Part shown: positions 11,240-12,124 of the stretch, one piece after another
Layout: each line of letters opens with the position of its first letter
Position numbering within the stretch: position 1 is the stretch's first letter
Assembly: GCF_003334315.1 (NCBI RefSeq)
Contig: NZ_QOWR01000028.1
Strand: one strand, 5' to 3'
Length of the DNA: 57,407 nucleotides
Origin: Escherichia coli
GTDB lineage: Bacteria > Pseudomonadota > Gammaproteobacteria > Enterobacterales > Enterobacteriaceae
The notes under the pieces: model-generated
Database searches by the model: none
The model's input: the letters and a program-made list of their open reading frames with translations, nothing else
What the model was told of the DNA's origin: nothing
Program-made: the position numbers and the translations under genes

Positions 11240-12124
11240 TTACTTTGCAATGAGATCGGGGTCAACTTCGCTTAACCGGCTTCGTTTTGACAGGTTGCCG
11301 GTCTTTCTTTTTTTCACTTTCGCCAGTTCTTCCGCAGAGTAATGCGACGCGACATCCAGCCGTCGAAGCCCCATTTTGATGTACTCGCTGTTGATCTCAA
11401 TACCAATGAATTTTCGCCCGCTGGAGACGGCTACGGCACCGGTAGTAAAGCTACCGGCAAACGGGTCGAGAACGATATCGCCTGGGTTGGAAGAGGCGAG
11501 AATAATGCGTTTCAGTAAGGCTTCCGGTTTTTGCGTCGGGTGGTTCTCATATTCATCCATCAAATAACGCACGCGCGGAAAATCCCAGACGTTACCCGGT
11601 ACTTTTTGATGATTGTATGGCTGTGGAGGATTTTTGCGATAATCGATCAACGCGCGCTGCGATCCGGTTTTGGCTTCTACCAGAATAGCATCACCGTTGA
11701 ATGTGTAGTTCTTTGCGTCTTTCACCATCATCAGGATGGGTTCGTACATGGAGCCGTAGTGTTTTTTCGCCTGTACTCCAGAACTGTCATATGACCAGAC
11801 GATGCGACTTTTGATGGTAAAAAGCTTGCGGCACTGGAGATCGATAAAGGGCATGTTTTCCGTGCTGTTCATGATGTACATGCTGCCCTGCTTTTTCAGA
11901 ACGCGGTGGCACTCTGCAATCACTTCAAACAGCCAGTCGATAAACAGATCTTCTTTCCAGGCTTCGATCAGACCATCAAAATTTTTACCGATGTTATATG
12001 GTGGGTCGGCAAAGATCAGATCGACACTTTCGGCGGGGATCTTTTTAAGTTCGGCAAGCGCATCACCGTGAATAATGGTCTTAGCTTCATTACCAAACCG
12101 GGTCGGTTCACATCCTGTTCTCAT
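11240..12124 (-). CDS. yhdJ: DNA adenine (N6) methyltransferase, orphan
   Basis: 294 aa from MRTGCEP; catalytic DPPY motif (FADPPYNIG) and C-terminal AdoMet motif (VLDPFAGSFTTG): beta-class amino-MTase order. Confidence 0.95.
   Translation of the reverse strand: MRTGCEPTRFGNEAKTIIHGDALAELKKIPAESVDLIFADPPYNIGKNFDGLIEAWKEDLFIDWLFEVIAECHRVLKKQGSMYIMNSTENMPFIDLQCRKLFTIKSRIVWSYDSSGVQAKKHYGSMYEPILMMVKDAKNYTFNGDAILVEAKTGSQRALIDYRKNPPQPYNHQKVPGNVWDFPRVRYLMDEYENHPTQKPEALLKRIILASSNPGDIVLDPFAGSFTTGAVAVSSGRKFIGIEINSEYIKMGLRRLDVASHYSAEELAKVKKRKTGNLSKRSRLSEVDPDLIAK

Follow-up and report, generated by a model that had tools for sequence, protein, structure and literature searches.

The closest described system is the YhdJ protein of E. 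coli K-12 (locus b3262, M.EcoKII in REBASE), whose gene was already characterised in 2007 (Broadbent et al. 2007, J Bacteriol 189:4325). Overexpression of K-12 YhdJ results in methylation of ATGCAT and protection against NsiI (PMC4444293). The enzyme is non-essential and poorly expressed and its role is unknown (PMC4444293, PMC4659465, PMC8495745), and an earlier note on the DNA analysed here, which had described it in these terms, agrees with the literature. No ATGCAT methylation was detected in K-12, EC958, E2348/69 or three environmental isolates (PMC4444293, PMC4659465, PMC8495745), and deletion of yhdJ caused no phenotype in E. coli or Salmonella (including PMC9239280). Methylome experiments on yhdJ are largely in the literature already.

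The second is YhdJ of Salmonella enterica, an ortholog that is about 77–81% identical to the protein analysed here and is found in the same fis-terminator-yhdJ-yhdU order (PMC9239280). In contrast to the E. coli enzyme, which is silent, the Salmonella enzyme is active in the laboratory. Its methylation is partial and growth-dependent, with 513 methylated sites in 14028s (PMC9239280) and about 50–61% of the ATGCAT sites methylated in strain 4/74 (bioRxiv 10.64898/2026.01.27.702048). A phage-defence-related role has been proposed by Bourgeois et al., and the gene is truncated in S. Paratyphi A (PMC9239280). The Salmonella terminator is identical to the one described below, but the leader and the Shine-Dalgarno sequence are not, and the gene after yhdU is one for a GGDEF-EAL protein.

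The third is M.EcoT22I of plasmid pEC22 (Elhai, Cai and Wolk 1994), an isoschizomer of M.AvaIII (PMC3265524). According to the passage of PMC5052281 that cites Elhai 1994, pEC22 codes for MR.EcoT22I. The methyltransferase gene is convergent with that of a 343-aa endonuclease, the two overlapping by 29 nt at their 3' ends. Ahead of the endonuclease gene lies that of a helix-turn-helix controller of 69 aa. Recognition of ATGCAT is, according to the literature, common to M.EcoT22I and YhdJ. Finally, CcrM of Caulobacter shares with YhdJ the beta-class fold, the motif order and the solitary state; unlike YhdJ it is essential, cell-cycle regulated, extended by an additional C-terminal domain (366 aa) and specific for GANTC.

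The window, i.e. the whole stretch of 57,407 nucleotides of E. coli DNA that was analysed, contains on its minus strand an open reading frame (11240..12124) that runs from an ATG at 12124 to a stop codon at 11240-11242 and encodes 294 amino acids. A GTG at 12130 is in frame and would add two codons, but it overlaps with the Shine-Dalgarno sequence GGGAG (12130..12134, minus strand, 5 nt upstream of the ATG), so that the ATG is to be regarded as the real start. A search with 1.7 kb (window positions 10900-12600) found 100% identity to a genome in which RefSeq annotates the gene with the same boundaries, as well as to E. coli C and many others that carry a yhdJ annotation. The Pfam domain N6_N4_Mtase (PF01555) was matched by residues 34-251 over model positions 1-218 of 221 with E=1e-63, which is well past chance, and the NCBIfam equivalog NF008572 (YhdJ) covers residues 1-294 of 294 with a score of 589.4 bits (cut-off 292).

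Translation and motif search, with a direct check of the sequence, located the motif IV region FADPPYNIG at residues 38-46 (11987..12013, minus strand; DPPY at 40-43) and the AdoMet motif I region VLDPFAGSFTTG at residues 218-229 (11438..11473, minus strand; DPFAGS at 220-225). The resulting order of motif IV, target-recognition domain and motif I is that of the beta class, and the closest solved structures are CcrM (6pbd, E=2.7e-33), M.MboIIA and M.RsrI. Compared to K-12 YhdJ, 291 of the 294 residues are identical, the differences being I233V, A234S and T293A (10 nucleotide differences in the gene). The allele matches that of E. coli C and others, and the locus and its neighbours are those of K-12 with an identical fis-yhdJ spacer. 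YhdJ of the window is complete and intact, carries both catalytic motifs and belongs to the equivalog family, and E. coli yhdJ (M.EcoKII), a solitary beta-class adenine methyltransferase, is with high probability the best overall explanation of this feature. The earlier note had called it yhdJ and an N6-adenine methyltransferase, with a DPPY motif near the beginning and an AdoMet motif near the end. The name is borne out by the three residue differences to K-12 and the 589 bits obtained with NF008572, and the activity is supported by PF01555 together with the motif positions. YhdJ of the window is predicted to be AdoMet-dependent and to transfer an N6-methyl group to the second adenine of ATGCAT, where the specificity ATGC(m6A)T is taken over for this allele from its 99% identity to K-12 YhdJ and its 76% identity to M.EcoT22I.

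Upstream of yhdJ lies fis (12210..12506, minus strand), with which the dusB-fis operon ends, and downstream yhdU (10977..11156, minus strand), which codes for a DUF2556 protein of 59 aa (PF10831 in related loci), with acrS (10312-10974, plus strand) beyond it. The annotation is thus the same as the arrangement given earlier, with fis on one side and yhdU/acrS on the other. The order dusB-fis-yhdJ is shared by the window, K-12 and 24 other enteric loci. Downstream, yhdJ is followed by yhdU in the window, in K-12 and in nine further loci carrying yhdJ, and the gene keeps a fixed position. The claim that no restriction partner flanks the gene was also upheld, as tblastn searches with R.EcoT22I, C.EcoT22I and 41 related endonucleases gave no match in the window or in the 24 enteric loci. 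The best hit of the endonuclease family (E=0.012) overlaps the 3' end of yhdJ itself and represents no separate gene, and the best match of the C.EcoT22I controller in the window had E=2.5. Annotation of the whole window revealed a single gene with a nuclease domain, yhcG (54740-55867, PDDEXK), and no other endonuclease candidate. As a distant partner nuclease yhcG was rejected, since it is 43 kb away and hhalign gave a probability of 0.2% against the EcoT22I endonuclease family. Of an EcoT22I/AvaIII-type system the locus therefore retains the methyltransferase, with neither an adjacent endonuclease nor an upstream helix-turn-helix controller. It shows the properties of a solitary methyltransferase, namely the lack of a cognate endonuclease, synteny in Escherichia, Citrobacter and Salmonella, and monophyly. 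With no endonuclease or controller gene nearby, yhdJ is a solitary methyltransferase; this finding is correct but ordinary, as the gene is already known.

The gene is nearly universal in E. coli: it was found in 5418 of 5426 complete genomes (99.85%), 5388 of which cover at least 80% of it, and it is intact across the three genera Escherichia, Citrobacter and Salmonella. The dN/dS ratio of the window gene was 0.12 compared to K-12, 0.05 compared to E. whittamii and about 0.04–0.05 compared to Citrobacter and Salmonella. Judged by these ratios (0.04–0.12), the protein is evidently under purifying selection. Disruptions occur, e.g. an IS1 insertion in H27 and a premature stop at codon 286 in L092.

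With respect to the origin of the gene, 58 non-enteric loci with a methyltransferase of 58–72% identity were considered, 56 of which had DNA and a scorable downstream gene. In 44 of these 56 loci the 3' end of the methyltransferase gene is abutted by members of one homologous gene family (typically about 345–395 aa). This family matches the PADLOC model REase_II (PDLC03455) over its full length with 5e-70, and several of its members are named type II restriction endonuclease by NCBI, which also names a member of the family from Cronobacter sakazakii. The endonuclease fold was recognised by PADLOC REase_II only, searches of Pfam, NCBIfam and PDB giving no match even with a profile of 15 sequences. 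The complete cassette of controller, endonuclease and methyltransferase was found on small, mobilizable ColE1-type plasmids of E. coli (including pEC22), Klebsiella and Enterobacter.

M.EcoT22I is 75.6% identical to YhdJ of the window over 283 aa (E=3e-150), including the target-recognition region, and has the same motifs; its clade is the closest to YhdJ outside the fis locus. A neighbour-joining distance tree built on about 260 columns, with no bootstrap support, joins the fis-linked genes in a single clade. The sister group of this clade is formed by the plasmid-borne M.EcoT22I enzymes, and the clade lies within the endonuclease-linked methyltransferases. The window gene differs from M.EcoT22I in having neither partner and a different C-terminal tail, and the similarity of its leader to those of the plasmid methyltransferase genes extends over about 20 nt only. 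We consider it probable that yhdJ is the methyltransferase half of a Type II cassette of the EcoT22I/AvaIII type, which entered the chromosome in a single event directly 3' of the fis terminator. This capture would date back to an ancestor shared by Escherichia, Citrobacter and Salmonella; the genes for the endonuclease and the controller would have been lost afterwards or might never have come along.

The fis terminator (12149..12185, minus strand, identified by RNA folding) consists of an A-tract, a stem-loop of 26 nt (12155-12180) and a tract of six U (12149-12154). The stem-loop reads GGCGCU-ACUCGGCAUGGGGA-AGCGCC and contains two stems of 6 and 3 bp. Its folding energy is -14.0 kcal/mol for the hairpin alone and -19.3 kcal/mol when the A and U tracts are included. 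The terminator core AAAAGGCGCTACTCGGCATGGGGAAGCGCCTTTTTTAT is identical or differs by 1–2 nt in 25 loci of Escherichia, Citrobacter and Salmonella; the terminator of a genome without yhdJ deviates at two positions of the loop. The position directly downstream of this terminator on the same strand, which had been pointed out before, is confirmed by the fold of the hairpin and by an ATG that follows the U-tract after 24 nt in the window and after 22–27 nt in the 25 enteric loci.

Given this short distance in all 25 loci, transcription of yhdJ would most likely depend on read-through. The gene may have been captured with only about 20 nt of its original leader. Promoter scans of the upstream regions of the plasmid methyltransferase genes gave counts no higher than shuffled sequence and were discarded as a sign of a promoter left behind. 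The 24 nt behind the U-tract would be too short to hold a conventional promoter for the gene, and transcripts would then reach yhdJ chiefly when polymerase reads through the strong terminator of fis. Such a dependence would explain both a very low expression and its tracking of the dusB-fis burst in outgrowth and exponential growth. That yhdJ is expressed mainly in this way, at a very low level and in step with dusB-fis, has in our opinion somewhat better than an even chance of being correct, and fis is the likely source of the transcripts that enter the gene. As an answer to the question of read-through, which the earlier note had raised, it is the most economical explanation of the anatomy of the locus, and it is plausible, with circumstantial support. 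In lag phase, dusB, fis and yhdJ rise together (PMC2780417), and the number of methylated ATGCAT sites in Salmonella is larger in mid-exponential cultures than in late stationary ones (bioRxiv 10.64898/2026.01.27.702048).

It has to be considered, however, that yhdJ might be transcribed independently of fis from a promoter of its own, which could overlap the terminator or reside inside fis, the proximity of the terminator then being incidental. In the terminator region a pair of hexamers that each agree in 4 of 6 positions can be read at a spacing of 17 nt (TCGGCA-N17-TATAGG), a candidate for a weak promoter. The candidate -10 element lacks the invariant final T, however, and a consensus promoter scan of the minus strand from dusB to the start of yhdJ found no sigma-70-like site. 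The small space of 24 nt behind the U-tract also argues against such a promoter, and a start site inside fis would not remove the need for read-through of the terminator. By qPCR, deletion of dusB-fis did not significantly change yhdJ mRNA compared to the control (Gerganova et al., PMC4751926), which would favour independent transcription, but the test is confounded because the control carries a cat resistance cassette at the junction between fis and yhdJ. In addition, yhdJ and yhdU are listed with CpxR-related expression changes (PMC9600279), and Salmonella cells methylate ATGCAT to a higher degree when growing slowly in SPI-2 medium than when grown in LB (PMC9239280). The latter is contrary to a simple coupling to fis, although slower replication and the supply of SAM could explain it. 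Taken on its own merits, an independent promoter is a possibility that we regard as rather doubtful.

Salmonella has the same terminator and a weaker Shine-Dalgarno sequence, and yet about half of its sites are methylated, compared to no detectable methylation in E. coli, so that the local sequence does not explain the difference between the species. A small hairpin in the leader of the window gene, GUCAC-N7-GUGAC (12126-12142, minus strand), places the Shine-Dalgarno sequence in its loop and 3' arm. It is confined to Escherichia and is not kept in Citrobacter or Salmonella. Sequestration of the Shine-Dalgarno sequence was rejected as a general cause of silence, since the hairpin is weak (-5.3 kcal/mol) and restricted to Escherichia, and most of the Shine-Dalgarno sequence is in the loop.

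What keeps the gene intact is a separate question. One answer would be that yhdJ serves as a genomic 'vaccine' against plasmid restriction-modification systems of the EcoT22I type and is kept for that reason. A low level of ATGCAT methylation would blunt the restriction of E. coli DNA on entry into EcoT22I-positive cells, as well as post-segregational killing after the loss of such a plasmid. Small mobilizable plasmids circulating in E. coli, Klebsiella and Enterobacter do carry these cassettes, with a methyltransferase 76% identical to YhdJ, and strong purifying selection is seen without a laboratory phenotype. As a parallel, the solitary methyltransferase Dcm is said to protect against EcoRII-type systems, a finding reportedly made by Takahashi et al. 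in 2002. The phage-defence-related role suggested by Bourgeois et al. (PMC9239280) points in a similar direction. On the other hand, no methylation was detected in K-12, EC958, E2348/69 and the three environmental isolates, so that the protection would be absent under the conditions tested. Furthermore, the endonuclease family occurs in just 11 of 72,556 plasmid records, which makes the selective pressure look small, and ATGCAT is not depleted in the window. Protection against such plasmids is therefore an unlikely reason for the retention of yhdJ.

Still more speculative, and in our estimate improbable, is a combination of read-through with this protection, in which a gene transcribed by read-through only would produce a brief pulse of ATGCAT methylation during the fis burst at outgrowth, selected because it neutralises EcoT22I-family plasmid systems. 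If this were true, restriction and post-segregational killing would be neutralised just when replication and gene exchange are fastest, and standard methylomes of mid-log or stationary cells would miss the methylation.

If yhdJ were a neutral remnant of a restriction-modification system, in decay and without present function, this would be in line with the silence in E. coli laboratory methylomes, with deletions that have no phenotype in E. coli or Salmonella, and with occasional disruptions such as those in H27, L092 and S. Paratyphi A. However, the low dN/dS ratios hold over divergences up to saturated dS, and the gene is intact in three genera and present in 99.85% of complete E. coli genomes; as it would under neutrality have decayed after Escherichia and Salmonella split, this view is strongly disfavoured and very improbable. 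The enzyme was reportedly called 'CcrM-like' by Broadbent et al. in 2007, but a cell-cycle regulator of the CcrM type, or one half of a pair with a nuclease elsewhere in the window, is refuted and has next to no probability left: although CcrM is the best PDB match and yhcG encodes a PDDEXK domain, the score against the CcrM equivalog NF050803 is 135.8 bits (cut-off 830), YhdJ has 294 aa instead of 366 and is non-essential, and the distance and the hhalign result given above speak against yhcG.

The old puzzle stays: the enzyme is silent in every laboratory methylome of E. coli, and yet its gene is kept intact, under purifying selection, in ~99% of strains and in three genera. The anatomy of the locus, with its apparent EcoT22I-type descent, its missing partners and an ATG 24 nt behind a strong terminator, turns 'silent' into a specific and cheap test. 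The question is sharpened to whether read-through from fis is the sole source of yhdJ mRNA and whether methylation is transient at outgrowth. This should be of use to those concerned with bacterial epigenomics and the domestication of restriction-modification genes, and is not field-changing.

With respect to base composition, yhdJ has a GC content of 48.0% (GC3 54.9%), similar to fis, compared to 50.9% for the window; the gene is ameliorated and GC content was discarded as a sign of foreign origin. Likewise, avoidance of ATGCAT was discarded as a trace of past restriction, since the window contains 10 sites and 9.9 are expected from a Markov model; a chance figure of 25.4 seems to include the palindrome once for each strand, so that no depletion is to be read from it. 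Finally, the promoter scan found a promoter-like site (11222-11195) in the 83-nt spacer between yhdJ and yhdU.

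The window is a segment of the E. coli chromosome (rrn operon end, acrEF, acrS, yhdU, yhdJ, fis, dusB, prmA, nan and yhc genes), and its methyltransferase is yhdJ, an already known gene. The ORF of 294 aa lies on the minus strand at 11240..12124, with its ATG at 12124, its stop codon at 11240-11242 and a Shine-Dalgarno sequence, GGGAG, at 12130-12134. An in-frame GTG at 12130, six bases upstream, overlaps the Shine-Dalgarno sequence, therefore the ATG is the start; identical coordinates are annotated by RefSeq in a genome with 100% identity across the searched 1.7 kb (window 10900-12600). 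FADPPYNIG occupies residues 38-46 and VLDPFAGSFTTG residues 218-229, and motif IV is followed by the target-recognition domain and then motif I, which is the order of beta-class amino-methyltransferases. YhdJ matches Pfam PF01555 (N6_N4_Mtase, E=1e-63) and scores 589 bits in the NCBIfam equivalog model NF008572, whose cut-off is 292. Judged by its sequence, the gene belongs to PF01555 and to the YhdJ equivalog family, with all defining features of that level present. The closest solved structures are CcrM (6pbd, 2.7e-33), M.MboIIA and M.RsrI. The likeness to CcrM is one of fold only; YhdJ fails the CcrM equivalog cut-off (136 vs 830 bits) and does not have the C-terminal extension of CcrM. The earlier note, which had described an N6-adenine DNA methyltransferase yhdJ at this position with an early DPPY and an AdoMet-binding motif near the C-terminus, was right in all details, and its sole omission was the strand.

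Three residues (I233V, A234S, T293A) set the window protein apart from K-12 b3262, and the fis-yhdJ spacer of 85 nt is the same in both. Of 5426 complete E. coli genomes, 5418 have the coding sequence, and 5388 cover at least 80% of it. Its GC content of 48.0% is ameliorated, and dN/dS values relative to K-12 (0.12), E. whittamii (0.05) and Citrobacter and Salmonella (about 0.04-0.05) indicate that yhdJ is not decaying and is kept under purifying selection. Disrupted alleles are rare in E. coli; one carries a premature stop after residue 285 (locus L092, 4383-5240) and another, in NZ_AP027854.1, is interrupted by an IS1 insertion.

The flanking genes, fis (12210-12506, minus strand) on one side and yhdU (10977-11156, minus strand) and acrS (10312-10974, plus strand) on the other, are the neighbours named in the earlier note, and none is a nuclease. 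The sole nuclease-like gene in the window is yhcG (54740-55867, minus strand), whose 375-aa product has a PDDEXK nuclease domain and is not related to the EcoT22I endonuclease family (hhalign probability 0.2%). When one genome per species was scanned, yhdJ orthologs were limited to Escherichia, Citrobacter and Salmonella (77-99% identity), and many homologs of 58-72% identity were found in unrelated phyla (Pseudoalteromonas, Nostoc/Anabaena, Prochlorococcus, Bacteroidota, Clostridia). DNA and a scorable downstream gene were available for 56 of the 58 non-enteric loci, and in 44 of these 56 the 3' end of the methyltransferase gene adjoins or overlaps a gene of one family, typically of about 345-395 aa, which lies convergently in proteobacteria and cyanobacteria and co-directionally in Bacteroidota. 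This family has no match in Pfam, NCBIfam or PDB; it is matched over its full length by the PADLOC Type II endonuclease model PDLC03455 (5e-70), and several members are called 'type II restriction endonuclease' by NCBI. When 41 members were used as tblastn queries, neither the window nor any of 24 enteric loci gave a match, and R.EcoT22I and C.EcoT22I found nothing in the window. The yhdJ gene is thus solitary there, as had been proposed. It is not a restriction-modification system of the EcoT22I kind, because both the endonuclease and the controller of that system were looked for at yhdJ and are absent.

The same endonuclease family is carried by small mobilizable ColE1/Rop plasmids of E. coli, in the order controller (69-aa helix-turn-helix protein), endonuclease (343 aa) and convergent methyltransferase (307 aa). 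One of these plasmids is pEC22, which codes for MR.EcoT22I according to the citation of Elhai et al. 1994 in PMC5052281; M.EcoT22I is in use as an isoschizomer of M.AvaIII (PMC3265524). The window YhdJ is 75.6% identical to M.EcoT22I over 283 aa, and the two enzymes probably work alike and come from the same ancestral stock. In a neighbour-joining tree, calculated without bootstrap support, the fis-linked genes from all three enteric genera group in a single clade whose sister is the plasmid M.EcoT22I clade, both being nested among endonuclease-linked methyltransferases. The simplest reading, which we consider quite probable, is that the methyltransferase half of an EcoT22I/AvaIII-type system was captured a single time, by the ancestor that Escherichia, Citrobacter and Salmonella share.

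On the minus strand the fis stop codon is followed by a canonical intrinsic terminator, made up of an A-tract, the stem-loop GGCGCU-ACUCGGCAUGGGGA-AGCGCC (12155-12180, -14 kcal/mol by RNA fold) and a U6 tract (12149-12154). The yhdJ ATG follows the last U after 24 nt, in agreement with the placement of yhdJ directly behind the fis terminator on the same strand. The terminator core is the same or differs by 1-2 nt in 25 Escherichia, Citrobacter and Salmonella loci, and the gap to the start codon is 22-27 nt in all 25. The similarity between chromosomal and plasmid methyltransferase leaders is restricted to about 20 nt, with a common TCACA and Shine-Dalgarno region, and no sigma-70-like site was predicted on the minus strand from dusB to yhdJ. 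Taken together, the conserved terminator, the short gap, the limited leader similarity and the lack of a predicted promoter make it look as if yhdJ arrived promoter-less and was joined to the back of the fis terminator. RNA polymerase bound for yhdJ would then have to traverse the terminator hairpin first, and such read-through would account for the very low expression of yhdJ.

A perfect palindrome, GACTATGAGTC, precedes the M.EcoT22I-type start codons of two plasmid loci (L095 6476-6500, L094 4108-4135) by about 15-25 nt and may be the operator of the plasmid system; its right half alone (GTCAC) is retained in the chromosomal leader. A small hairpin around the yhdJ Shine-Dalgarno sequence, GUCAC-AAAGGGA-GUGAC (12126-12142, minus strand, -5.3 kcal/mol), is present in all Escherichia loci and absent from Citrobacter and Salmonella. 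In one genome without yhdJ (GCA_043358095.1, 4298-8297 of the retrieved locus) the Fis protein is identical and the terminator nearly so, with two loop positions of the core changed, and it is directly followed by prophage tail/capsid-like genes, as judged from translations alone. Since PICI satellites are also reported to integrate at the 3' side of fis (PMC10111431), foreign DNA seems to land repeatedly at the spot behind the terminator.

The sequence ATGCAT is recognised in common by AvaIII, EcoT22I and NsiI (REBASE). Overexpressed YhdJ (M.EcoKII) methylates its second A and guards DNA against NsiI, and the enzyme is non-essential (PMC4444293). SMRT sequencing found ATGCAT methylation absent in a K-12 strain with intact yhdJ (PMC4444293), in keeping with the description of the K-12 enzyme as non-essential and poorly expressed. 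The same silence was reported for the ST131 strain EC958, in which yhdJ mRNA is significantly below dam mRNA (PMC4659465), for E2348/69 (PMC8495745) and for three environmental isolates (PMC9911048). The Salmonella 14028s ortholog is active, with 513 methylated sites, and ATGCAT methylation is the most condition-dependent of that methylome; when the gene is deleted this methylation disappears, with no phenotype in transcription or virulence (PMC9239280). The terminator of Salmonella is that of E. coli and its Shine-Dalgarno sequence is weaker, yet its enzyme is active. The methylome experiments suggested in the earlier note have thus largely been done.

The anatomy of the junction, as read from the sequence, supports the read-through idea raised in that note. 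Circumstantial support comes from the joint upregulation of dusB, fis and yhdJ in the lag phase of K-12 (PMC2780417) and from Salmonella 4/74, in which about 50-61% of ATGCAT sites carry methylation, a share that is higher in mid-exponential phase than in late stationary phase (bioRxiv 10.64898/2026.01.27.702048). Against it counts that Salmonella ATGCAT methylation is higher in slow-growth SPI-2 medium than in LB (PMC9239280), and that dusB-fis deletion did not significantly alter yhdJ mRNA, a result confounded by a cat cassette at the junction in the strain used for comparison (PMC4751926). Alternatively, a weak candidate promoter overlapping the terminator, TCGGCA-N17-TATAGG, may drive yhdJ, although its TATAGG does not end in the invariant T of a -10 hexamer. 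On balance we lean slightly towards the view that yhdJ transcripts arise mainly by read-through of the fis terminator. The junction offers a concrete and cheap test for the old question why a silent methyltransferase is kept under purifying selection.

Depletion of ATGCAT was looked for in the whole window and not found, 10 sites being observed against 9.9 expected by a maximal-order Markov model and 13.5 by base composition. A shuffle-based pattern search expects 25.4, but the shuffles seem to count the palindrome on both strands, therefore the depletion it implies is not real.

From the acrE-acrS spacer to yhdU (9800-11150) the window is AT-rich, with 32-42% GC compared with 51% overall; such tracts are a typical target of nucleoid proteins such as H-NS. 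A promoter-like site, TTTTCA-16-TATATT (11195-11222, minus strand), in the 83-nt yhdJ-yhdU spacer suggests that yhdU may have a transcript of its own; expression changes for both yhdU and yhdJ are listed in a CpxR study (PMC9600279). Positions 1-351 hold the end of an rRNA operon, where a tRNA-Thr gene (121-196) stands between a 5S rRNA gene truncated at its 5' end and a complete second 5S copy (236-351); this two-5S arrangement is that of rrnD-type operons. Tandem Rfam naRNA4 (RF02564) matches in the yhdP-tldD spacer (31396-31465 and 31487-31556; 71 and 77 bits) are REP-type repeat elements.
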